From positions 416,001 through 480,000 of the forward strand of contig CAVXVB010000008.1 in assembly GCA_963765205.1 (NCBI GenBank): a stretch of 64,000 nucleotides of DNA, written 5' to 3'. Each line of letters opens with the position of its first letter. Position 1 is the first letter of the stretch. Made by a program: the position numbers and the translations under genes. Below, piece after piece: positions 1,981 to 35,264 of the stretch. The notes under the pieces were generated by a model. That model did not search any database, was not told the DNA's origin, and was given only the letters and a program-made list of their open reading frames with translations. Origin of the DNA: an uncultured Verrucomicrobiae bacterium. Lineage in GTDB: Bacteria; Verrucomicrobiota; Verrucomicrobiia; Opitutales; JABDGR01.

Positions 1981-3375
1981 ATGACTTTTATGCGAAAACT
2001 ACTCCATCCCCTTTTGCTTTCACTCTGCGCGGCGCGGGCCTTCGGTGCCGACGCCGCCCCGGCCGCCGCGGACACGAATCCGCGCGAATGGATTGACCCG
2101 GACACGGGCCACCGCGTCATCCGTATTTCCGACGAGCCAAACAGCCAGAGTCTGTATTTCCATTACAACTCCTACACCCCGGAGGGCGACAAGATGGTCT
2201 TCAGCGCCCCGAGTGGGATTTGGACGCTGGACTTGAAGACGCTCGGCCAAGGTACGCCAAAGACCGATTGGATTGTGGATGGTCGCAACGCCCAGGCGGC
2301 GGGAGGCGCGGGCCGCGGGGGCCGCGGGGGCGGTGGGGGCGGTGGGGGCGTGAGTCTGCTCATGGCGGCGTTCCAGTCGCGCGATGCCTATTACACGGCG
2401 AATGGCATCCTCTACGCGGTGAATGTGGACACCAAGGTTTCGCGCATCGTCACCACGGGCCGCCCGTTCGGCGTGAACTGCAATGAAACTTACGTCGGCT
2501 CGATGGTCAACCAGGTGGACCCCACCGGCAAGGTGCAACCGCCTACGCCGCCGACCCTCATCCCTCAGCGCCAGCGCATGTTTGGCGACAAGATCGCCGC
2601 CGGCATCCCCTTGACGCCAGACGAAGAATATGCCGCGACCAAGGAGGACGGCCTCGCTCGCCGGTTGCTCAACCCCAGTTCGATGGCCTTCAATTTCACG
2701 AATTTAAAAACCAAAACCTCGGTGATCGTGGGCTATCAATACGCCTCGATTGACCACCAGCAATTTTCGCCGACCGACCCTAATCTGGTGCTTTACGCGC
2801 ACGAGGGCACCTGGCACGAGGTGGACCGCATCTGGACCATCCGCACCGACGGCTCCGACCAGCGCCTGATGTATAAGCGGCAGATGGACATGGAAATCGC
2901 CGGGCACGAATGGTGGAGCCACGATGGCCAGACCGTCTGGTTCGACTTGCAGACGCCGCGCAGCCACGATTTTTGGATCGGCGGCGTGAACGTGAAAACG
3001 GGTCGGCTCACCAAATACCACATCGAGCGCGACTGGTGGGGCGTGCATTTCAACTCCTCGCGCGACGACAAATTGTTCGCCAGTGACGGCGGCGACCCGA
3101 CCCAGGTGGCGTTTTCCCAGAACGGCGAATGGATCAATCTGTTCCGCGTGCAGCCCGACGGCAGCGTGACGCGCGAGAAGCTCGTCAACCTCTCCAAGAA
3201 CAATTACGTGACGGGCCAAGGCGGCATCGAGCCGAACGTCTCGATCACGCCGGACAGCAAATGGGTGGTGTTCCGCGCGAATATGCAGGGCGGCGTGGTG
3301 CAGGTCTATGCGGTCGAAATCGGCGGCGACCCCCAAAAAATCAGCAAGCCGGAAACGTTCGTGATGGAAAAGTAG
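1981..3375 (+). CDS. Oligogalacturonate lyase family (PL22) paralog
   Basis: Same motifs as the upstream gene (WIDPDTGHRVIRIS, HEGTWHEVDRIW, AGHEWW, IEPNVSITPD); start at 1981 or 1990. Confidence 0.85.
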   Translation: MTFMRKLLHPLLLSLCAARAFGADAAPAAADTNPREWIDPDTGHRVIRISDEPNSQSLYFHYNSYTPEGDKMVFSAPSGIWTLDLKTLGQGTPKTDWIVDGRNAQAAGGAGRGGRGGGGGGGGVSLLMAAFQSRDAYYTANGILYAVNVDTKVSRIVTTGRPFGVNCNETYVGSMVNQVDPTGKVQPPTPPTLIPQRQRMFGDKIAAGIPLTPDEEYAATKEDGLARRLLNPSSMAFNFTNLKTKTSVIVGYQYASIDHQQFSPTDPNLVLYAHEGTWHEVDRIWTIRTDGSDQRLMYKRQMDMEIAGHEWWSHDGQTVWFDLQTPRSHDFWIGGVNVKTGRLTKYHIERDWWGVHFNSSRDDKLFASDGGDPTQVAFSQNGEWINLFRVQPDGSVTREKLVNLSKNNYVTGQGGIEPNVSITPDSKWVVFRANMQGGVVQVYAVEIGGDPQKISKPETFVMEK

Positions 3376-6578: not shown

Positions 6579-7268
6579 CTATCCGTTTTTCCGGCGGTAG
6601 CGGATGGCGAAAACTATTCCGAAGATGACCAGGAGGACCATGCCAATGAGGTTGGGGATGTTGACCGACGAAGTATGCGGCGGGCCGTCCCACACCACGT
6701 CCATCAGTTCGTCGAAGGTCACGGCCTTGGCGGTGCGGTTTTGGAGGAGCACCGTTTTCCAATCGTCGGGCATCTGCGGCGGCTTGCCGGGTTTGGTGGG
6801 CGGTTGGTCATTGCCGCCGGCGATGAGGCCGTGGATGCTCAAGGCGATGGGGCCATCGTGGACGGGTGGCGGCTCGACGGCGGCAAGTTTCTGGCGCAGG
6901 GCCGCGAGCCGCTGGTCCGCCGGAGGAGGGGCAAGGGAAATGAGCCAGATGCGGGATTGCGGACCGGGTTTCACGGCGGCGACGATGTCAAGGTCATCCG
7001 GGGCGGTGGTGTTGGCGAAATATGTCTCACACACGTCTTGCAGTTTTTTAGTGTAGGTGGCCAGGTCGTCCAGCGAAGCGCGCCCGACGGTGGCGGCCTG
7101 CGGGAGGTAGAATTCCACCCCGGCGGTGTCGAAGCCTTTGGGTATGTCAACGGCTTGGCTCGCCAAAGGACTAAGAAACAAGGCCAGCGACAAGAGGAAG
7201 AATGGTTTCATTCGCAGGGTCAATTTCAGCATTTTTCGGGAATTAAGCACGCTCAAAAAACGGGCCAT
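6579..7268 (-). CDS. Hypothetical exported protein with C-terminal membrane anchor
   Basis: Signal-like MKPFFLLSLALFLSPLASQA (probable internal start); C-terminal TM followed by RRK. Confidence 0.6.
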   Translation of the reverse strand: MARFLSVLNSRKMLKLTLRMKPFFLLSLALFLSPLASQAVDIPKGFDTAGVEFYLPQAATVGRASLDDLATYTKKLQDVCETYFANTTAPDDLDIVAAVKPGPQSRIWLISLAPPPADQRLAALRQKLAAVEPPPVHDGPIALSIHGLIAGGNDQPPTKPGKPPQMPDDWKTVLLQNRTAKAVTFDELMDVVWDGPPHTSSVNIPNLIGMVLLVIFGIVFAIRYRRKNG

Positions 7269-7329
7269 CTCCCGCTTGCCAATGGCCGCCGGGATGGCGT
7301 ATATCTAGATACCCCCACCCACCCCACTC

Positions 7330-25411: not shown

Positions 25412-26020
25412 ATGGCCGTCGAACGACTGAACCAGCGGGTGTTGGTGCTTAACCGTTTGTGGCAGGCGGTGAACATCATCGGCGTCAAGCGGGCGTTTGG
25501 CCTGCTGATGATGGATCATGCGCAGGTGGTCCACGCCGACGATGACGCCATCGAGGTGCTCAATGCCGAGGGATGGATCGCCCATTCGCTGGCCCACCCG
25601 CCGACCGACGACCGCGACTGCATCCACACGGTGCGGATGAGACTGCGGCTGCCGTCGGTGATTTTGCTGCGCTACTACGACCGCGTGCCGGCCAAGGAAG
25701 TCAAATTCAACCGGCAAAACCTTTTCGAGCGCGACGGGCATTGCTGCCAGTATTGCGGCAAGGTTTACACGGTGAAGGAATTGAATCTGGACCATGTGAT
25801 TCCGCGCATGAACGGCGGGCGCACGTCGTGGGAAAACGTCGTCACGTCGTGCGTGCGATGCAATTCGCGCAAGGCGAACCGGATGCCGCACCAGGCGGGG
25901 ATGCATTTGCTGAAAAAGCCGACGAAGCCGAAATGGCGGCCGTTTGCCTACGCCGTCAGCACCGCCGACCGCGTCGAGCATTGGGAGCCGTTTTTGGGGG
26001 AGCTGGCGGAGGTGGATTAG
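25412..26020 (+). CDS. HNH endonuclease (McrA-like)
   Basis: VLVLN, RDGHCCQYCG, LDHVIPR..GG, WENVVTSCVRCNSRK. Confidence 0.9.
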   Translation: MAVERLNQRVLVLNRLWQAVNIIGVKRAFGLLMMDHAQVVHADDDAIEVLNAEGWIAHSLAHPPTDDRDCIHTVRMRLRLPSVILLRYYDRVPAKEVKFNRQNLFERDGHCCQYCGKVYTVKELNLDHVIPRMNGGRTSWENVVTSCVRCNSRKANRMPHQAGMHLLKKPTKPKWRPFAYAVSTADRVEHWEPFLGELAEVD

Positions 26021-26071
26021 TTTTGGGTTTGAAAATTGCGGCCGGATGTTTATCATATCTTGAAAAATCAC

Positions 26072-26281
26072 ATGAAAAATTTTACCGCCGTCGTGGAACG
26101 CTGCCCGGATACCGGACTTTATGTCGGCTATGTTCCCGGATTTCCCGGCGCGCACTCCCAGGGTGAAAACCTGGATGAATTGCAGCGCAACCTTGCGGAA
26201 GTTGTCGCGATGCTGCTGGAAGACGGGGAGCCGCGCCTGGAAGCCGAATTTGTCGGCACCCAAACCATCTCAATTGCTTGA
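26072..26281 (+). CDS. hicB: HicB family antitoxin
   Basis: YVGYVPGFPGAHSQGENLDEL. Confidence 0.85.
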   Translation: MKNFTAVVERCPDTGLYVGYVPGFPGAHSQGENLDELQRNLAEVVAMLLEDGEPRLEAEFVGTQTISIA

Positions 26282-26284
26282 GCC

Positions 26285-26512
26285 ATGGTAGGCCACCTAC
26301 CCGTGCTTAAGCCGGCTGAGGTTCTCCGTATTTTGGGGCGGTTGGGTTTTGTGCAAGTCCGGCAAAAAGGTTCGCATCGGCAATTTCGCCATCCCGACGG
26401 TCGTGGCACGACAGTCCCCGACCACCGCGGCCGCGACCTCTCGCCTTTCCTTTTACGCCAAATCGCGCGCGACATTGGCCTGACCCCGGAAGAGTTTTTG
26501 AAACATCGGTAA
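26285..26512 (+). CDS. hicA: HicA family toxin
   Basis: [26 protein letters not shown]. Confidence 0.9.
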
Positions 26513-27223: not shown

Positions 27224-27493
27224 GTGGGGGGGAAAAGATGGAAGACAGGAGTCAGGTGATAGAAGCCGGACAGCGGGGCCGTGGGGGGTGTTGATAAAGT
27301 GGTTGGACTGGGTTGGATTTGGGCAAAAGGCGCTGAGGAGCCAAGGCACTTAGCCGCAGGTGATTTCCCCGACAATCAGAAGGCGTTTGCATTATTTTAT
27401 TTAAATACAGCACATAATTTTTTCGGAATTATGCACTTCACAAAGGCCACGCTCTGACGGCCTAAGCTGGCCGATTCCCTGATTTTGGGGCGG

Positions 27494-27625
27494 CTATTTC
27501 TTGCGGGCCTTGGCCTTCGCCGTCTTATACGGCGGGATGGCCTCTGGCTTCACTTGCACGACCCGGCGCATCAGGTCTGCGAACCTGACGGGCGGATGGC
27601 GCAATTCTTGGGATTGCGGTTTCAT
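27494..27625 (-). CDS. Small basic 43-aa IS-end ORF
   Basis: MKPQSQELRHPPVRFADLMRRVVQVKPEAIPPYKTAKAKARKK*; read manually, below the ORF-track cutoff. Confidence 0.5.
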   Translation of the reverse strand: MKPQSQELRHPPVRFADLMRRVVQVKPEAIPPYKTAKAKARKK

Positions 27626-27648
27626 GGCTACGCTGTCAAATAGCACGG

Positions 27649-27879
27649 ATGGGATATAAACGCAAGGGCGACAAAGGGGTATCCATTACCCTACCAGCAG
27701 AGCTTGTGGACTATATTGAAAAGCGAGCAAAGCGCATTAACGGGTCTAAGTCATGGTATGTCGCGGAAATTATTCGCGCGTGGGTGGATGCTGGCGGGAA
27801 GCCAATCGGAAGGCTGGATGAGAAAATGCAAAATGACGAAGATGGGCTTGGCAATCCACCGACTCAAAGTAAAAAGTGA
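27649..27879 (+). CDS. Ribbon-helix-helix (CopG/Arc-like) regulator
   Basis: VSITLPAELVDYIEKRAKRINGSKSWYVAEII. Confidence 0.75.
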   Translation: MGYKRKGDKGVSITLPAELVDYIEKRAKRINGSKSWYVAEIIRAWVDAGGKPIGRLDEKMQNDEDGLGNPPTQSKK

Positions 27880-27964
27880 TATAAAGCTGGAGCTACCGGA
27901 GCTTATGAAGCTACTGAAGTAATTTAAGTTACCGGAGCTAGTTCGGGATAATCGTGAAACCGTC

Positions 27965-27992
27965 TTGTCATTCGGTAACGTTCCCGTATTTT
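27965..27992 (+). promoter_or_regulatory. Putative promoter for the cargo operon (wHTH-tRNA-DUF6941)
   Basis: TTGTCA-16 bp-TATTTT upstream of 28023. Confidence 0.35.
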
Positions 27993-28022
27993 CTCACTAT
28001 GCCCGATGATAGACTATAAGTA

Positions 28023-28643
28023 ATGACGAAGCTCGACCTCGAAACGGCGGAGCAGCTTTTGGCATTGAGGTTGAGGCGGTATGATGAATTGAAAGTGGAA
28101 ATTGCAAATGTGACTTCTCAAATTCAATCCTTAGTTGATGACATCGGTGCCGTTAAGTTAGAGCAGGCCAATCAACAAAATCTTGATGGCGGAACGCCTG
28201 CTAAAATTGAGCGTCCTGAAATCAAGACACCGGCCAATGATGCCGACATTCGAGGGCGTGAAAAATACGGGGCGGCGCGCAAGGCAATAATTGTCCTTTT
28301 GCGCGAACAGGGGCCGCGTTTAATAACAACGGAAAAAATGCAGGCGGAATTAAAAATTCCACCTTCTACATTATATCGAAACCTTACTGATTTGCAGGCG
28401 GATGGAGTTATTTCCAAAATTGGAAACGCATGGTGTTTTAGCGCAATGATAAGTTCGTCCCCTTCCAGCTATCAGGCATACATAAATGAGCTTACAAATC
28501 AAGGCTTCATCGCAAACGTAGATTTAACTGCATCACCCCCGGCAACCATTCCCTATACTTCCCCGAAACCCCCTAAGGCTCGGGGGCCTAACATTTCCAA
28601 CAAATTTAATATGCCTCCACAAAACGGCGCGGCAACCGGGTGA
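28023..28643 (+). CDS. Coiled-coil plus winged-HTH protein with Pro-rich tail
   Basis: N-terminal heptad helix; TTEKMQAELKIPPSTLYRNLTDLQADGVISK HTH. Confidence 0.65.
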   Translation: MTKLDLETAEQLLALRLRRYDELKVEIANVTSQIQSLVDDIGAVKLEQANQQNLDGGTPAKIERPEIKTPANDADIRGREKYGAARKAIIVLLREQGPRLITTEKMQAELKIPPSTLYRNLTDLQADGVISKIGNAWCFSAMISSSPSSYQAYINELTNQGFIANVDLTASPPATIPYTSPKPPKARGPNISNKFNMPPQNGAATG

Positions 28644-28675
28644 TCCCCACTTAAGCGCGCCTCTGCAAAGAAATA

Positions 28676-28766
28676 ACCCCCTAACTCTGGCCCAACTTCG
28701 CGGGCGGAACCAGAAAGGGGGTCGGTAATCCCGAGGGGCCAGATTGCTCTGGCCGCTCGTTCTTTT
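28676..28766 (+). promoter_or_regulatory. Structured leader with intrinsic-terminator-like hairpin and alternative pairing
   Basis: ACCCCCT/AGGGGGT and TCTGG/CCAGA stem; CGAG-G-GGCCAGA/TCTGGCC-G-CTCG hairpin followed by TTCTTTT; TCTGGCCC (28686-28693) is also complementary to GGGCCAGA (28736-28743). Confidence 0.55.
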
Positions 28767-28773
28767 CCAATTA

Positions 28774-28861
28774 GCCTATGTGGTGTAACTGGCAGCCACG
28801 TCCGCCTTGGGGGCGGTTGCCTGTGTGAGCAGGCGTGTGGGTTCGACCCCCACCATAGGCA
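28774..28861 (+). tRNA. Class II tRNA-Leu-type body with Pro anticodon UGG (CCA end not encoded)
   Basis: Acceptor GCCTATG/CATAGGC, A73; D arm GTG-TAACTGGCAGC-CAC; anticodon arm TCCGC-CTTGGGG-GCGGT; variable arm GCCTGT-GTGA-GCAGGC; T arm GTGGG-TTCGACC-CCCAC. Confidence 0.9.
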
Positions 28862-28918
28862 TTTTTTATAGGATGACAAACAAAATTTTTAACCGAAAAC
28901 TTGAACGAAAATAAATTT

Positions 28919-29365
28919 ATGAAACTGGAGATTTTTACCCTTTGCGATGAAGCGCATGAAGCAAATGGAAAGCTCTATATCAATGGGGCATTCCAAAATC
29001 TTTTTTCGGCTGGCTTCCCATGTGTCCATCCAAGATTTTGTGTGGTCGCCCGCCTTAGATTTATTCCGATAGAGATTGGAGACCACGCCATCCAAGTTAC
29101 ATTCAAAAATGAAGACGGCAAAGATGTGCTATCTATCCCCGTAATTGAACAGAAGTTTTCGGTTCAAATACCCGAAGATAAAACCTCCATTGCCCTTCAC
29201 TGCATAATTCTTATTAACGCAACACAATTAGGGGCACCTGGAGAATACATGGTGGGTTTAGCCGTTGACCGTTTGGCCCAAGCAGAGCTTCCGTTGTATG
29301 TGTCTCAAATGCCCCCGCAAGCGCAATCGCCGGAGCCGCCTTCTGTTCACGACGGGCCGCATTAG
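28919..29365 (+). CDS. DUF6941-like beta-sandwich protein
   Basis: FTLCDEA...NGKLYINGAF...FP...PGEYMV pattern. Confidence 0.6.
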   Translation: MKLEIFTLCDEAHEANGKLYINGAFQNLFSAGFPCVHPRFCVVARLRFIPIEIGDHAIQVTFKNEDGKDVLSIPVIEQKFSVQIPEDKTSIALHCIILINATQLGAPGEYMVGLAVDRLAQAELPLYVSQMPPQAQSPEPPSVHDGPH

Positions 29366-29432
29366 CCCTTTTTTGCTCTTCAAATTGGGAGGTTTGGCTC
29401 ATGGCAAAAATTTATCATAACCCATATTTTTG

Positions 29433-30401
29433 TCAACCCCCTATCGTAACTGAGGCGCAGGCTGGCTCCTTATACCGCAACCGCTTGCCTTCGATGTTTT
29501 GGAGTCCGGCAATCGTGCGCGCGCCGTCAGTCAACTTGCGGGTGTTATAGCGATGATCGAACTCTGCGAGGTAGAGCGGCAAATGCTTGAGGGAAACATG
29601 ATGGAAGGTGCCGACGATACCGCGCTTGAGCAGGCTGAAAAAGCCCTCCACAGTGTTTGTGTGAACGTCACCCCGGACATACTCCCCGGCAGAGTGATTG
29701 ACCCGCGCGTGCTTAAAGCCCTTGGCCGCGCGTGGGTAGGGCCGGAATTGGTCGGTATAGACCTTTGCGCCCTCCGCCACGTTGGCCTGAATAACCGCTT
29801 TGAGGTTGTTCCCGGTGACGCACGCCATGACGCGCGAGCGGGCCTTCCCGTCGCGCTGGACAAGCGAAACGACCGGAACCTTGTTGCCAGTGTAACGACG
29901 CCCCATGCCCTTTGTTTTGCCGCCAACGTAGGTTTCGTCAATTTCCACGGTGCCGTCAAACTTCTGCCCGTCTAGCACTGGGTCTTTGAGCGCGTGGCGG
30001 ATACGGTGAGCCATAAACAGGGCCGTGCGATAGCTGCCAAGGCCCAACACCCGTTGCAATTCCAACGCGGCAACGCCCTTCTTGGCCGACGCGAACAGAT
30101 ACCAGCCGATAAACCACTTGGACAGCGGGATATGGCTGTCCTCGAAAACCGTGCCGACGGTGACGGTGAACTGCTTGTTGCACGCGCCGCACTGAATCAG
30201 GCCGGGGCGAACCTTCTTGGCCGGGTTCGCGGCAATGCGCCATAGGCTGTCCTGCTTGGCGTTGCGGCAATGGGGGCAAACCGGGCCGCTGGGCCACCGG
30301 ATGGCCTCTAGGTAGGCGCGGGCCTTGTCCTCACTGTCGAAGTGCTGCATGATTTCCGGCAGCGTGAGCGTCTCTGGGACTGGATTGAGTTGCTTATTCA
30401 T
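29433..30401 (-). CDS. IS1595-family DDE transposase
   Basis: IRWPSGPVCPHC...CGACNKQF zinc ribbon; VEIDETYVGG; YTD; HTNTVEGFFSLLKRG; YLAEFDHRYN. Confidence 0.95.
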   Translation of the reverse strand: MNKQLNPVPETLTLPEIMQHFDSEDKARAYLEAIRWPSGPVCPHCRNAKQDSLWRIAANPAKKVRPGLIQCGACNKQFTVTVGTVFEDSHIPLSKWFIGWYLFASAKKGVAALELQRVLGLGSYRTALFMAHRIRHALKDPVLDGQKFDGTVEIDETYVGGKTKGMGRRYTGNKVPVVSLVQRDGKARSRVMACVTGNNLKAVIQANVAEGAKVYTDQFRPYPRAAKGFKHARVNHSAGEYVRGDVHTNTVEGFFSLLKRGIVGTFHHVSLKHLPLYLAEFDHRYNTRKLTDGARTIAGLQNIEGKRLRYKEPACASVTIGG

Positions 30402-30407
30402 GCCCTC

Positions 30408-30435
30408 AATATAGCATAGTTCAAACCTTTGTCAA
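30408..30435 (-). promoter_or_regulatory. Transposase promoter with its -35 inside the right TIR
   Basis: Minus strand TTGACA-16 bp-TATATT (TGn extended), ATG 6 nt later; the left TIR has TTCACA at the equivalent position. Confidence 0.6.
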
Positions 30436-30703
30436 GTGCATAATTCCGAATTTTTTGGGCGGCAAGGAATGTTTTGATTTTATTCTCGAAGCGCATATAC
30501 ATAATATACCTCTTTGTGTTCAACTAGGGATCCATCATGAAGGTGAACGGCTGAAGCAAAAAAATTTAATTTTTAAGAAATTTGATAAAAGGCTCCGCAA
30601 AACTGTTGGAGAACCGCATAAATATAAATCGATTATAGAAATGCAGTACGTCAGACCAATAAAGTCAAAGGATTCGCCATAAGCACTTTTGCCCTAAAGT
30701 GAA

Positions 30704-32800
30704 TCACTGAGGTAGCTTTTTACCGTCACGTAGATTTCTATACCATGTAAGCGCCAAGAGGGGCCAAGCCCATTGGTAGGAAGTATATTTCAAATAAAAA
30801 ATTCTCGGAAAGCCCGTTCCGGTAAACCATGGATAATGCCAGGAGCCGTCGGGGTGTTGGGTTTCTAACAGGTATTGGATGCCGCGTTCAATTGAAGGGC
30901 GGTCTAGTTTCGAGTTGGGGTCGGAGTCGGTAGTGGACGCGGCGCAAGCAAGTAAACCCAGCAAGGCCCAAGCCGTTTGGGAGGCGGTGGAGGGGTGGTG
31001 TAAGTTTTTAGTTTCTAGTTTTTGGTTTTTAGTTTCGGATTGGTCGGCAGCTTTTTCCATTTTCCATTTTCCATCTTCTATTATTTCCCCGTAACTCGGC
31101 AGTTCGCCGGTGGGGCCGGTGGGGGTTACTTGGAAAAACGGGGCGCCAGCGCCGCGGGTTTGGGGGTCGTGGTAGGTCCAGCAGGATTCGCCCCAGCCGC
31201 CGTCGGGGTTTTGCATTTTCTCCAGCCAGTCGCGGGCGCGCAGGACGCGGGGTTGGGTCATGTCTTCGCCGATGAGGGCGAGGCCGCGCAGGACGTGCGA
31301 GGTGCCGTAAATATAATTGACGCCCCAGCGGCCGAACCAGGAGCCGTCGGGTTCCTGGGTGCGCCAGACGAAGTCGAGGGCGCGCTGGACGAGGGGGTCG
31401 GCGCGGGAGTGGCCGGTTTTGGCGAGGGTTTCGAGGGCGCGGCCGGTGATGTCGCTGCAGGGGGGGTCGAGGATGGCGTTGTGGTCGGCGAAGGGTACTT
31501 GTTCGAGCCAAGGGGTGGTGAGGTCGCGGTCGAAGGCGGCGAATCCGCCTTCCTTACATTGGAAGGCGCGGCACCAGGCCATGGCGCGCTGGAGGGCGGC
31601 GGCGCGGCGGGGTTCGTCGGTGGCGCGGAGGACGCGGAGGGCGAGGACGACTTGGAAGGTGTCGTCCACGTCGGGGTAATACTCGTTGTTGAATTCGAAG
31701 GCCCAGCCGGCGGCGGTGGGGAAGGAGACGGTTTCGGCCCAGTCGCCTTTGATTTTGATTTCTCGGTCGAGGAGCCAGTCGGCGGTTTTTTGGAGGCGGG
31801 GGTCGGCGGCGGGGACGCCGGAGTCGGCGAGGCATTGGGCGATGATGGCGGTGTCCCAAACGGGGGAATAACAGGGGGCGACGCGGAGGTCGCCGGGGTC
31901 GCCGCGGACAAGGCCGTCGAAGTCGCGGGTTTCCTTGGCGAAGAGGGGGTGGTCTTTGAGGCCGAGGAGTTCGAGGGCGATGAGGGTGTTCAACATGCCG
32001 GGGAAGATGGCGCCCATGCCGTCGGAGCCGTCGCCGAGGCGGGCGAGCATCCAGTCGCGCGCGGCGTCGAGGGCGCGCTGGCGGAGGAGGTCGGCGGGGA
32101 GGTGGTTGAGGACGCGGCCAAGCTGGTCGAGGGCGAGGAAGAGGTTGCGCCAGGAAAAGAATTCGTCGGAGCGGGGCAGTGACCAATCGCCGTGTTGGGT
32201 GCCACCGGGGTAAAGTTCGTCGAGCGAGGGGCAGGCGGGGAGGATGCGGACGGGTTTGTAATGGTTGATGACGGTGAGGGGGACGACGAGGTTGCGCGTC
32301 CAGGAACTCATTTTATAGATATGGAAGGGGGCCGAGGTGGGCAGGAGCATCATTTCGGCGGGGATGAGCGGGCAGTATTGCCACGGGAAGAGGCCGCACA
32401 TGGCGAGGTAGAGTTTGCCGAAGGTGTGGAGTTTGGGGATGCCGCCGAGGGCGAGGGCGCGTTCGCGGGCGCGGAGGAATTGGGGCGCGGTTGGCTCCAT
32501 GCCGGTGAGGCGGAGGGCGTGGTAGCCTTTGATGGTGGCGGCGATTTCGGCGGGGCCGCCGGGGAACTGGGGCCAGCCGCCGTCGGGGAGCTGGCGGGCG
32601 AGGATGTGGGCGCGGCAGCGTTCGTTCTGGGCTTTCCCGGGCTGGCCGGCCCAGTGGTAATAGAGGACGAAGTCGGAGACGACGGTGCTGTCCACAATCA
32701 ACTCGCACTCCCAAAAACCGCGGGGGTCGAAGCGGGAGAAGAGGTAGTCTTGGGCGCGGGCGATGGCGTCGCTGACGTTGATGCAGGCGGGAGCGGACAT
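30704..32800 (-). CDS. shc: Squalene-hopene cyclase, with ~50-aa repeat-derived insertion
   Basis: YPDVDDT (DXDD), QW repeats (QLPDGGW, QEPDGSWFGRWG, QNPDGGWGE), FTGTGFP. Confidence 0.93.
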   Translation of the reverse strand: MSAPACINVSDAIARAQDYLFSRFDPRGFWECELIVDSTVVSDFVLYYHWAGQPGKAQNERCRAHILARQLPDGGWPQFPGGPAEIAATIKGYHALRLTGMEPTAPQFLRARERALALGGIPKLHTFGKLYLAMCGLFPWQYCPLIPAEMMLLPTSAPFHIYKMSSWTRNLVVPLTVINHYKPVRILPACPSLDELYPGGTQHGDWSLPRSDEFFSWRNLFLALDQLGRVLNHLPADLLRQRALDAARDWMLARLGDGSDGMGAIFPGMLNTLIALELLGLKDHPLFAKETRDFDGLVRGDPGDLRVAPCYSPVWDTAIIAQCLADSGVPAADPRLQKTADWLLDREIKIKGDWAETVSFPTAAGWAFEFNNEYYPDVDDTFQVVLALRVLRATDEPRRAAALQRAMAWCRAFQCKEGGFAAFDRDLTTPWLEQVPFADHNAILDPPCSDITGRALETLAKTGHSRADPLVQRALDFVWRTQEPDGSWFGRWGVNYIYGTSHVLRGLALIGEDMTQPRVLRARDWLEKMQNPDGGWGESCWTYHDPQTRGAGAPFFQVTPTGPTGELPSYGEIIEDGKWKMEKAADQSETKNQKLETKNLHHPSTASQTAWALLGLLACAASTTDSDPNSKLDRPSIERGIQYLLETQHPDGSWHYPWFTGTGFPRIFYLKYTSYQWAWPLLALTWYRNLRDGKKLPQ

Positions 32801-32837
32801 GGGCAAAGTGGGGAATTTGGCGGAATCGCGCGGTGCC

Positions 32838-33021
32838 TTCAACATCCAATCCCGCAATCGCGGGAAACATCCAACATTCAACATCGAATGCCGGAAACCA
32901 AGCGCTTAACGTCCGAGATCAAACAGGCAACGCTCAACGTTTAACGCTTAACGCTCAAGTCAAAGCCGGTTATTTTGCCTTTCATTGGATGTTCGATGTT
33001 GGGAGTTCGATGTTGGATGTT
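32838..33021. repeat. Composite AACATCC/AACGCTC heptamer palindromic element
   Basis: aacatccaacattcaacatcgaatg ... aacgctcaacgtttaacgcttaacgctcaa ... ttcattggatgttcgatgttgggagttcgatgttggatgtt. Confidence 0.8.
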
Positions 33022-33058
33022 CTTAAGATACGTGGTTCAATCTTCGGCAATTCTCGCC

Positions 33059-33946
33059 ATGATTCTGATCCTGATACCAAGCCATTTTGAGGCGGAGCCG
33101 TTTCTCAAGGGGATTGCCGGAGCGCGAAAGTCGCACCATGGCGGGGCGGATATCACGCGAGGAAAGATTGGCGAAATGGACGTGACAGTCGGGGTGATTG
33201 GGATGGGTTTGCCACACGCAAAGTTAAGAGCGAAGGCGGTGGTGGAGTATTGCAGAATGGAAGATGGAAAATGGAAAAAGGAAAAAGAGGGCGAAGGGCG
33301 AAGGGCGAAGGGCGAAGGGGAACGGGGAAGAAGAATGGAAAATGGAAAATGGAAAATGGAAGAAATCGGAGGCCAACCGGAAACCCTCCTTCGCCAAGGC
33401 TACGGAGGGCAGGCTCGAAACGCGAAACCCGAAACTGTTCGCGGGATTATTCTGGCGGGATTTGCGGGGGCGCTTGAGCCGGGATTGAAGCGGGGCGATA
33501 TTTTTATAACGGCGGGGACGGAGTATTTGCTGCCGCATTTGCCGGAGGGGGAGCGGCCGCGCGCGGCCAAGCTGGCGACGGTGAACGATATCGCGGGGCC
33601 GGCGGCAAAAAGGGAATTGTTCGAGCGCGATGGCGCGCGGTTGTGCGACATGGAGCAGGCGCACATCGAGGCGGTGGCGCGTGACTTCGGCCTGCCGCTC
33701 ATCGGCATCCGCATCGTGAGCGACGAGGTGGACGAGGACCTGCCGGTCGAGACGCTGAGTCGCTACTACGACCAGGCGACGGGGACTTACACGCCGTGGA
33801 AACTGGCCGGGCACCTGATCCGGCATCCTTCTAAGATCGGGCCGCTGGCTGCGTTTGTTCGGCCTTTGTCGCCGATTCGCAACCACATGAGTGACTGCCT
33901 CCACACATGGCTGCGCCAGGCGGGGCCGCAGTTGTTTCACTCTTAA
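33059..33946 (+). CDS. hpnG: Hopanoid-associated nucleoside phosphorylase (HpnG-like) with repeat-derived insertion
   Basis: GMG, ILAGFAGALEPGLKRGDI, CDME, IRIVSD; located between shc and hpnH. Confidence 0.7.
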   Translation: MILILIPSHFEAEPFLKGIAGARKSHHGGADITRGKIGEMDVTVGVIGMGLPHAKLRAKAVVEYCRMEDGKWKKEKEGEGRRAKGEGERGRRMENGKWKMEEIGGQPETLLRQGYGGQARNAKPETVRGIILAGFAGALEPGLKRGDIFITAGTEYLLPHLPEGERPRAAKLATVNDIAGPAAKRELFERDGARLCDMEQAHIEAVARDFGLPLIGIRIVSDEVDEDLPVETLSRYYDQATGTYTPWKLAGHLIRHPSKIGPLAAFVRPLSPIRNHMSDCLHTWLRQAGPQLFHS

Positions 33947-35045
33947 CTGGGGACGTCGTGAGCGACGCCCCTACAGTAGCGCGGGCTTTGGGCGCGACGG
34001 CGCGGGCCATGGGGGGGATCGCGTCGCCCTCGGCGTCGGGGTTGAAAAAATACTTGGCGGTGCGGGCGAGGCCGCCGACGGAGCCGAACATGTCGTTGAC
34101 GGCGCTGGCTTCGTAGCCGCAGTGGACCATGCAGTCCTTGCAGCGTTCGTCCCAGCCTTTTTGGCCATAGCGGGCCCAGTCGGTGGTTTCGATGAGTTCC
34201 TTGAAGGTGGTGGCGAAGCCGTCGCCAAGGAGGTAGCAGGGCTTTTGCCAGCCGAAGACGTTGTAGGTGGGGTTGCCCCAAGGGGTGCAATCGTAGTCAA
34301 TTTTGCCCTGCAAAAAGGCGAGGAAGTTGGACGAGTGGTTGAAACGCCAGGTTTTTTTCGCGGAGCCGAGGATTTGCTTGAAGAGGGTCTTGGTGCGGCT
34401 GCGTTCGAGGAAGATTTCCTGCTCGGGGGCCTTGGCATAGGGGTAGCCGGGGGAGATCATCATGCTCTCGACGCCGAGGTCCATCATGTCGTCGAAGAAG
34501 CGGCGGACGCGGTCGGGGTTGGCGTTGTTGAAGACGGTGGTGTTGGTGGTGACGCGGAAACCGCGGGCGACAGCTTTGCGGATGGCGGCTTCGGCGATGT
34601 CGAAGGTGCCGTCGCGGCAGACGGATTTGTCGTGCTCTTCCTTCAGCCCGTCCATGTGGATGGAGAAAGTGAGTTGTTTGTGCGGCGTGAAGGAGTCGAG
34701 CTTGCGTTCGAGTAGAAGGGCGTTCGTGCAGAGGTAAATATAGCGACCTTGCTTGATGAGGCCGTCCACGATGGCGTTGATTTCGGGGTGGATGAGGGGT
34801 TCGCCACCGGCGATGCTGACGACGGGCGCGCCGCATTCCTCAGCGGCGGCGAGGGCTTGCTCGGCGGAGACGCGCTTTTTGAGGATGTGCTCGGGGTATT
34901 GAATTTTTCCGCAGCCTTCGCATTCGAGATTACAACGGAAGAGGGGCTCGAGCATGAGCACGAGCGGGTAGCGCTTGACGCCCCGGAGCTTTTGCCCGAG
35001 GACATACGACATCACTTTGAAGGCTTGGGAGACGGGAACGGCCAT
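33831..35045 (-). CDS. hpnH: Adenosyl-hopene transferase, radical SAM
   Basis: RYPLVLMLEPLFRCNLECEGCGKI, GGEPL, CTPWG, CMVHCGYE. Confidence 0.93.
   Translation of the reverse strand: MAVPVSQAFKVMSYVLGQKLRGVKRYPLVLMLEPLFRCNLECEGCGKIQYPEHILKKRVSAEQALAAAEECGAPVVSIAGGEPLIHPEINAIVDGLIKQGRYIYLCTNALLLERKLDSFTPHKQLTFSIHMDGLKEEHDKSVCRDGTFDIAEAAIRKAVARGFRVTTNTTVFNNANPDRVRRFFDDMMDLGVESMMISPGYPYAKAPEQEIFLERSRTKTLFKQILGSAKKTWRFNHSSNFLAFLQGKIDYDCTPWGNPTYNVFGWQKPCYLLGDGFATTFKELIETTDWARYGQKGWDERCKDCMVHCGYEASAVNDMFGSVGGLARTAKYFFNPDAEGDAIPPMARAVAPKARATVGASLTTSPVKSETTAAPPGAAMCGGSHSCGCESATKAEQTQPAARS
33949..33974 (-). repeat. GTAG-type REP-like hairpin inside the hpnH 3' end
   Basis: Minus strand GTAG-GGGCGTCG-CTCA-CGACGTCC. 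Confidence 0.6.
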
Positions 35046-35264
35046 AATGGCGGGCACTATCACCCGGAATGTCCCGGGTGTCAATGCTTATGCTTTAAGT
35101 GGTTGGGTGGCGGAGACTTGAAGCCGGACTTAAGCAAACGCTGTGCCGCAGATGGAGGCGGCATGGAATCCAAGCTGCACCGCAAAGGCGCGAAGGGCAA
35201 GAAGGACGTTTTTAGCCAAGGCTAACTGAACCATCGCCCGCCATCTCTATGTGGCTGAAAGGAA

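Follow-up and report, generated by a model that had tools for sequence, protein, structure and literature searches.

An IS1595-family element carrying a tRNA-Leu body with a UGG (proline) anticodon, and its apparent coupling to codons of the element's own transposase

Introduction

Allo-tRNAs are natural bacterial tRNAs in which the identity specified by the body disagrees with the anticodon, and their genes have neighbours related to transposons and to toxin-antitoxin systems (Mukai et al. 2017, PMC5389517). In the supplement to that paper, 16 rows labelled 'tRNALeu (7/5)' give the ochre anticodon UUA for sequences drawn from soil metatranscriptomes, and the supplement file gave no match (0) to a UGG anticodon. 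A hybrid identity involving proline is found in Streptomyces and Kitasatospora, where tRNA-ProX combines a proline body with a non-proline anticodon containing A34, and a dedicated synthetase gene, ProRSx, is needed or present (PMC11415595). What natural identity-mismatched bacterial tRNAs of these two kinds do is described in reviews as an open question.

Other systems place genes under the control of a particular tRNA. In phages with recoded stop codons, suppressor tRNAs decode the stops that occur in many late genes, and the bldA tRNA-Leu(UAA) of Streptomyces, a normal cognate tRNA and the sole reader of its codon, controls genes that contain TTA. As for the insertion sequences considered here, IS1595 elements with passenger genes were reportedly described by Siguier and colleagues in 2009 under the name 'transporter IS'.

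The present work concerns a window of 64,000 nucleotides (positions 416,001 to 480,000 of contig CAVXVB010000008.1, assembly GCA_963765205.1) from an uncultured Verrucomicrobiae bacterium. A sequence-only reading of this window had proposed that an insertion sequence within it carries a chimeric tRNA, leucine-type in body and proline-type (UGG) in anticodon, which would act as a natural Pro-to-Leu mistranslator.

Results

The tRNA gene

ARAGORN identifies a single tRNA in the 64-kb window (28774-28861, plus strand, anticodon TGG) and labels it tRNA-Pro; five relatives are missed by the same program. The Rfam tRNA model matches the 88-nt gene at 41.1 bits (gathering threshold 29, E 1.5e-06); a gathering-threshold scan of the whole window with Rfam did not pick it up. 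Sequence, ARAGORN, fold and Rfam agree on the cloverleaf first described: the acceptor stem has 7/7 pairs with G1-C72 and A73, the D stem has 3 bp, the T arm is intact, the 19-nt variable region includes a 6-bp stem with a GUGA loop, and U27.U43 is the one stem mismatch; C32 and G38, absent from the earlier description, are able to pair. Folding energy is weak on its own (z -1.85); the case for a real tRNA rests on the Rfam model match and on covariation within the family. A sequencing or homopolymer error as the source of TGG was ruled out by a Logan short-read contig from run X1 (894 nt, depth 7.6), which spans 28246-29139 with 0 differences and so upholds the anticodon as first read; the other three of four runs do not reach across it. 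X1 may be the source sample, and the contig is therefore a check on the assembly rather than an independent occurrence.

The window tRNA has the tRNA-Leu set A73, A15:U48, G18G19, A20a and U8:A14, together with G18:U55, G19-C56, U54:A58 and a long variable arm, and the bases present predict the tertiary contacts of a leucine core; the tRNA-Leu feature it lacks is a Leu anticodon (A35), in place of which it has TGG. Of the tRNA-Pro features, G35, G36, G37 and A73 are present; C1-G72, G15:C48 and a short variable loop are missing, and in their stead stand G1-C72, A15/U48 and the 19-nt arm. That the body is of leucine type is corroborated by its five best matches in the host, which are the five host tRNA-Leu genes, and by viral tRNAs with the same D arm, of which 77/77 distinct sequences (at least 120 loci, among the matches listed) have Leu anticodons. 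The host has these five normal tRNA-Leu genes as well as normal tRNA-Pro genes, including one with UGG, so that the window tRNA is an extra gene; the host's own Pro tRNAs begin with C1. Elsewhere in the host genome lies a second, divergent seven-gene tRNA array (G000:C9:1287772-1288740).

The element and its surroundings

The tRNA is cargo of an IS1595-family element (Table 1), as shown by a transposase with Zn-ribbon and ISXO2-type DDE domains, terminal inverted repeats and identical 8-bp flanks; carriage on an insertion sequence, part of the original proposal, is thereby established.

Table 1. Features of the element and its tRNA, with positions in the 64-kb window.
Feature	Position	Strand	Evidence or remark
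8-bp target duplication, left copy (AATTTTTT)	27416..27423		
IS1595-family element with cargo, 3,025 bp	27424..30448		Single copy in genome
Terminal inverted repeat, 23 bp	27424..27446	+	Detected repeat pair 27422-27446/30426-30450
Lys/Pro-rich small ORF, 43 aa	27494..27625	-	No Pfam match
Ribbon-helix-helix-like protein, 76 aa	27649..27879	+	PF01402, E 7e-4, just under cut-off
206-aa protein with winged-helix-like domain	28023..28643	+	HTH_24, E 2e-4, under cut-off
Terminator-like hairpin, 20 nt 5' of tRNA	28737..28754	+	Possible expression control
tRNA gene, tRNA-Leu body, UGG anticodon, without encoded CCA end	28774..28861	+	ARAGORN, fold, Rfam, short-read contig
Anticodon TGG	28808..28810	+	ARAGORN, short-read contig; anticodon loop 28806-28812
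DUF6941 cargo gene	28919..29365	+	PF22091, E 1e-31
IS1595 transposase, 322 aa, intact, convergent on cargo	29433..30401	-	PF12760, PF12762
CCA codon 313, C-terminal site	29463..29465	-	Three residues past conserved Tyr
CCA codon 141, linker site	29979..29981	-	Ahead of catalytic domain
Terminal inverted repeat, 23 bp	30426..30448	-	One mismatch versus left end
8-bp target duplication, right copy	30449..30456		Identical to left copy

About 1 kb to the left of the element lie an HNH endonuclease gene and a hicB-hicA pair (window 25412-26512), and to the right of the insertion a squalene-hopene cyclase gene with adjoining hopanoid-type genes (window 30704-35084; neighbours judged by sequence only). 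The count of terminator-like hairpins is no higher than in shuffled sequence, and a hairpin upstream of the tRNA reaches z <= -2 against mononucleotide shuffles in 11/23 members of the tRNA family. The Lys/Pro-rich ORF belongs to an unnamed peptide family (40-60 aa, amphipathic in the core) present at about 55 IS1595 loci, at some of which it overlaps the stop of the transposase gene; the loci include ones with and without a tRNA, and the peptide is not specific to tRNA carriers.

The other IS1595-type transposases of the host adjoin no tRNA except ordinary host tRNAs. The host also has two further cargo-bearing IS1595 elements (G000:C9:261449-264939 and G000:C5:5416-8848), which have inverted ends and are tRNA-less. 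Named relatives of the window transposase come from Verrucomicrobiota assemblies, and at E 1e-80 the transposase occurs in 1/300 genomes of the order besides the host. A DNA search of 61 related genomes returned only fragments of 22-38 nt, and blastn against plasmids and phages gave only partial tRNA-Leu matches. Viral sequences held 0 matches to the exact D arm combined with a non-A35 anticodon, a single-protein locus search of viral contigs found nothing, and PADLOC, Atlas and fold searches yielded nothing specific.

A family of leucine-type tRNAs with other anticodons

Whether UGG or other non-Leu anticodons recur among homologues had been left as a check, and its outcome is positive: divergent bodies with UGG are found in other IS1595 elements, and the homologues do not all have Leu anticodons. 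In 23 aligned family members, 97.8% of stem cells are paired and 21/24 pairs change on both sides, at a median identity of 59% (25 rows). Among 22 members, the leucine core is kept as A14A15 in 22, U48 in 21 and A73 in 20, and the proline features C1-G72 and G37 are found in one and seven, respectively; several family members depart from the norm in the T loop or at U33. The 88-nt gene, with its tRNA-Leu body and UGG anticodon, is thus real and no decayed one-off.

GTDB genomes were scanned for a Leu-type D arm, a long variable arm and a non-A35 anticodon, which gave at least 121 loci. The 122 tRNAs parsed among the matches listed, a set in which some ordinary archaeal tRNA-Ser genes and single-step mutants were kept, have 29 anticodons overall, and 90 of them have both 7/7 acceptor pairs and A73; 55 of these 90 lie at least two changes from any Leu anticodon and 35 lie one step away. 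Per genome, the pattern is uncommon (4/391 Acidobacteriota genomes, G496 among them). Of 80 loci with flanks among the matches listed, six hold an IS1595 transposase, five of these with a Pro anticodon, and an IS1595 transposase occurs at none of at least 120 viral Leu-anticodon loci (80 with flanks). No IS1595 transposase lies near 11/25 UGG matches of a tRNA-first search, and many class members sit in phages or islands without IS1595, so that other roles must exist. In L135, L155, L196 and L221 the tRNA lies between inverted ends flanked by duplications; such ends were sought around 18 tRNAs without an insertion sequence and were absent from 17 and doubtful in one.

The sequences suggest that Leu-body tRNAs do not adopt the identity that matches their anticodon: G3:U70 is found in 0/23 bodies with Ala anticodons (the scan pattern fixed the D arm and not position 3/70), and A73 in 11/11 with Asp and 7/7 with Gly anticodons (the pattern left A73 free).

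The class is frequent in assemblies of Gemmatimonadota and Planctomycetota. Some members adjoin IS1-like or DDE_Tnp_1 transposases; no codon match was seen in these transposases. Intact Leu-body tRNAs with CGC, GTC, GGA, ACC, GGC and other non-Leu anticodons occur at loci in the series L181-L301, and two related prophages (L164 and L168, tRNA at about 2960-3080) have identical tRNA bodies with AGC and TCC anticodons, respectively. Solitary Leu-like genes at L141, L150, L156, L161, L191, L192 and L206 form only the inner 4-5 acceptor pairs and are perhaps non-translating tRNA mimics; those in prophages run antisense to their neighbours behind AT-rich, promoter-like DNA.

An anticodon-blind sample of 160 IS1595 transposase loci (the best 80 of 587 and the best 80 of 330 confirmed matches) contains 15 loci whose tRNA joins UGG to a body not of proline type (13 of Leu type and two with a short arm and U73); other anticodons found are AGG, GGA, UUA, ACC and CGC. 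No Leu-anticodon tRNA was found inside a bounded element in this sample, element ends having been found for 86 loci, so that absences elsewhere are weak. The two short-arm U73 genes (L304:1112-1187 and L302:7292-7362) lie in close relatives of the window element, and that of L304, missed by ARAGORN, is identical to the window tRNA in its acceptor stem. Some IS1595 elements have two odd tRNAs each (L405:6175-6359; L449:5922-6036 and 7189-7275; L436:6099-6714; L351:5587-5756), among them an 8/4-type UAU gene, a Ser-like CGC gene and a gene with a 46-nt variable arm. Beside the IS1595 transposases of L329 (5985-6057) and L428 (2514-2582) are tRNA-like genes whose acceptor stems are of G3:U70 type and whose D arms are degenerate.

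CCA codons in the transposases of carriers

Codon usage was compared in 154 transposases that remained after broken, short and duplicate ones were removed. The first 15 carriers have 51 CCA codons against 18 expected, versus a 0.97-fold ratio in 131 non-carriers, and CCA is the most enriched of 59 codons (51/190 Pro codons in carriers against 54/823 in 82 GC3-matched non-carriers). CGG, GGG and ACG are raised as well, a sign of clade effects.

The excess peaks at two sites, one in the linker (codon 141) and one near the C-terminus (codon 313, after the Tyr of the GKRLxY motif). In the predicted structure the linker site lies past the helix that precedes the catalytic domain, at the start of a short helix; the C-terminal tail is predicted with low confidence. 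CCA occupies the linker site in 18, the C-terminal site in 14 and both in 13 of 20 carriers, as compared with nine, three and zero of 68 bounded non-carriers. Both sites were chosen on the first 15 carriers; in the five carriers found afterwards by a codon-blind scan, the linker site has CCA in 5/5 and both sites in 3/5. Nine new distinct elements reached through the tRNA replicate the pattern, with CCA exactly at the C-terminal site in 5/8 that are visible there (6/8 within one codon) and at the linker site in 6/6.

The signal is confined to the reading frame (14, 1 and 1 by frame). A frameshift signal was ruled out, as no context is shared around CCA, and an explanation by a DNA motif is weakened by a signal restricted to frame 0 whose shifts in position are of whole codons. 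Six independent pairs on well-supported branches of a FastTree phylogeny give 4.7 changes in the same direction and 0 in the opposite one (p not below 0.06). Presence of the tRNA thus appears to be coupled to particular codons of the transposase encoded by the same element.

Residues at the C-terminal site

The pattern of Leu-to-Pro substitution fits the C-terminal site only: a transposase-wide lock, in which leucine positions generally would carry proline codons, was ruled out, since only one of 300 cells across the 19 Leu columns of the sample is Pro. A set of 149 family representatives at 50% identity was examined; in those that have the motif, the commonest residue at the C-terminal position is Leu, with 43 cases against 14 of Pro and seven of Ala. 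CCA stands there in 12/17 carriers of Leu-body UGG tRNAs, against 8/111 non-carriers, and is missing in the other 5/17.

Matching codons extend to other anticodons. L340, with an AGG anticodon, has CCT at the C-terminal site, its only two CCT codons being those of the two sites; L436, with the ochre anticodon UUA, has TAA; and the fragment L571, with UGC, has GCA. The background at this site in 111 non-carriers is 17 CCT, zero TAA and one GCA. A plain Leu codon occupies the site in four non-UGG carriers (L196, L405, L563 and L584, the last at 2.5 kb), the codon of L216 (CGG anticodon) does not match, and the motif was sought but not found in L135 and L530. In the short-arm U73 loci L302 and L304, CCA lies one codon earlier and Leu is already encoded.

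In most non-carriers the residue at this site is Thr, Pro, Ile, Ala or Ser, and the transposases of three end just ahead of it with no suppressor found, so leucine is not indispensable there; where a non-carrier has CCT or a stop at this position, a hidden AGG or suppressor tRNA was sought, and none was found. The two closest IS1595 copies in the host have TCA and CCT. In 119 close homologues, taken irrespective of tRNA carriage, the C-terminal site is Pro in 67 and Leu in 22, and the linker site is Pro in 107. Non-carriers (tRNA-less loci in the series L302-L461) have A/T-ending codons at the C-terminal site in 87/108 cases against 35 expected, a bias that may mark a generally slow site.

A Leu-body tRNA with a CUA anticodon at the phage locus L131 offers a parallel, in that two in-frame TAG codons align with Leu in the homologue L187 and, judging from the alignment, look as if they are read as leucine. 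The gene in question encodes phage DNA polymerase III alpha (L131:48-2960, L187:891-3960), and two more TAG codons are common to both.

Charging and the host

Leucine identity in E. coli depends on A73 and D/T-loop contacts and does not need the anticodon (PMC9976931), and the host LeuRS is of bacterial type. According to the same source, the determinants of archaeal/eukaryal-type ProRS are the anticodon and A73, with G1-C72 in addition in A. pernix (PMC9976931). The host's only ProRS is of this type (family I), and the bases of the A. pernix set (anticodon, A73, G1-C72) are present in the window tRNA beside its Leu core and long arm, so that charging with Pro, or with both amino acids, is possible. 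The original argument that a tRNA without C1-G72 would not be prolylated is accordingly not clean in this host.

CCA makes up 11% of host Pro codons and is present in 80% of long host ORFs; the window tRNA therefore cannot be specific for the element, and its expression must be low or conditional.

Discussion

We consider it roughly an even bet (about 0.5) that a leucylated tRNA recodes the element's own transposase and so gates transposition. The tRNA gene would be transcribed at a low level, processed, supplied with CCA and charged with leucine by the host LeuRS; in competition with host tRNA-Pro(UGG), it would then place Leu at some CCA codons. The transposase keeps CCA at a position where the commonest residue of the family is Leu, and the leucine form, presumed to be the more active, would arise only upon expression of the tRNA and to the extent that this allows, which would make the tRNA a key that gates or tunes transposition. 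Mistranslation of host proteins would be a side cost, limited by weak expression and imperfect anticodon arms. With somewhat less assurance, and at slightly under even odds, we extend this to a widespread class of insertion sequences whose transposases may be under programmed sense-codon recoding by a Leu-charged, anticodon-switched tRNA, the fully active enzyme being made only when the matching codon at the C-terminal leucine position is so read; the matching codons are most often CCA, and also CCT, GCA or a TAA stop. Of the idea of a general Pro-to-Leu mistranslator, the Leu body and the recurrence of UGG stand; 'general' is doubtful, since a tRNA that appears tied to specific transposase codons implies that this is probably not the whole story.

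The other explanations are taken in declining order of probability. The tRNA, charged or not, might alter ribosome speed or drop-off at the two CCA sites and in this way limit or time transposase production. The linker site, which is not a Leu position, would fit such a codon-specific pause, as would the UGG anticodons on class I U73 bodies, the T-loop and U33 departures of several members and the preference of non-carriers for A/T-ending codons at the C-terminal site; yet we regard it as unlikely, because A73 and the Leu core are retained in 20/22 members, the C-terminal site is the Leu position of the family, and an ochre anticodon opposite TAA fits read-through better.

It is also rather improbable that the tRNA serves as a general mistranslation toxin, an addiction or abortive-infection cargo to which the transposase codons are secondary. 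Related elements carry MqsA-like plus SecB, Fic, IrrE-HTH and Schlafen-RecG genes, among others, and many members of the class lie outside IS1595; furthermore, induction of allo-tRNAs killed E. coli and allo-tRNA genes lie near toxin-antitoxin genes (PMC5389517). However, the carrier of such a toxin should shun the misread codon, and avoidance of CCA was ruled out, the elements being enriched for it instead; nor was any conserved partner gene besides the transposase found.

Slightly harder still to sustain is the view that the archaeal-type host ProRS charges the tRNA through G35, G36, A73 and G1-C72, so that the element's codons are adapted to a proline decoder of its own, which perhaps escapes toxins that target tRNA-Pro. 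Consistent with this, the host ProRS is of family I, as is that of 10/14 genomes with Pro-anticodon Leu bodies against 7/32 others, a contrast confounded by the self-selected control, which was picked with few Gemmatimonadota or Bacteroidota; the Pro codons of carriers move from CCY to CCR, and close homologues conserve Pro at both sites. In one carrier, however, the sole ProRS belongs to family II, and family I was not found in three more. CCA is not enriched at conserved Pro columns (2/48), the UUA/TAA and UGC/GCA matches cannot involve proline, and the identity features of the Ala-, Asp- and Gly-anticodon bodies (0/23, 11/11 and 7/7, as above) speak against an identity that follows the anticodon.

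A captured tRNA-Leu(UAG) decaying after a single A35G change is very improbable and for the family largely refuted: UGG is one substitution from UAG, 35/90 intact genome matches are likewise one step from a Leu anticodon, and the gene is single-copy with its U27.U43 mismatch, but the elements of the blind sample hold 15 UGG against 0 Leu anticodons, A37 is present in 14/22 members, unlike a UAG parent, and the stems covary and the codons match.

If recoding of the transposase by its cargo tRNA is real, it would be the first function for mobile mismatched tRNAs and a new layer of transposition control, by sense-codon recoding; hosts in several phyla would tolerate mobile sources of mistranslation, and many genes of this sort would be escaping annotation pipelines or receiving wrong labels from them. 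The 3-kb element pairs its tRNA with a defined target codon in a defined gene, so that the question of what a mismatched tRNA does can be put directly to experiment. For recoding work, the many anticodons found on Leu scaffolds offer a naturally occurring set of parts.

Among known systems, the window tRNA resembles allo-tRNAs in the disagreement between body and anticodon and in its location in a mobile element (PMC5389517), and the IS1595 locus L405 has an 8/4-type UAU tRNA beside its Leu-body tRNA, as in the allo-tRNA class. In contrast to allo-tRNAs, it has the canonical 7/5 fold rather than 8/4 or 9/3; A73, C3-G70 and Leu identity rather than Ser (G73/U73) or Ala (G3:U70); and a sense UGG anticodon, and it lies within a bounded IS1595 element whose transposase has the matching codon. 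The nearest precedent is the 7/5 tRNA-Leu with an ochre anticodon of Mukai et al. (PMC5389517, supplement). Like tRNA-ProX, the window tRNA is a natural bacterial tRNA of hybrid identity involving proline, in the opposite direction and as IS cargo with no co-encoded synthetase (PMC11415595).

As in recoded phages, a mobile element would supply a tRNA that its own genes need, here for a sense codon, against a competing host tRNA and at one or two sites of one gene. The likeness to bldA lies in one tRNA gating genes through a rare codon; unlike bldA, the window tRNA would alter the amino acid, and its gene is part of the very element under its proposed control. With 'transporter IS' the element shares a Zn-ribbon and DDE transposase, inverted repeats of about 23 bp, an 8-bp duplication and variable cargo, and it differs in a tRNA cargo coupled to transposase codons; neither such cargo, nor IS1595-borne mismatched tRNAs, nor a tRNA recoding its own transposase, was found in the literature searched, a scope outside which most subscription papers fall. 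The molecule is thus a variant of known mismatched tRNAs, and the system, if the gate is real, is new in kind.
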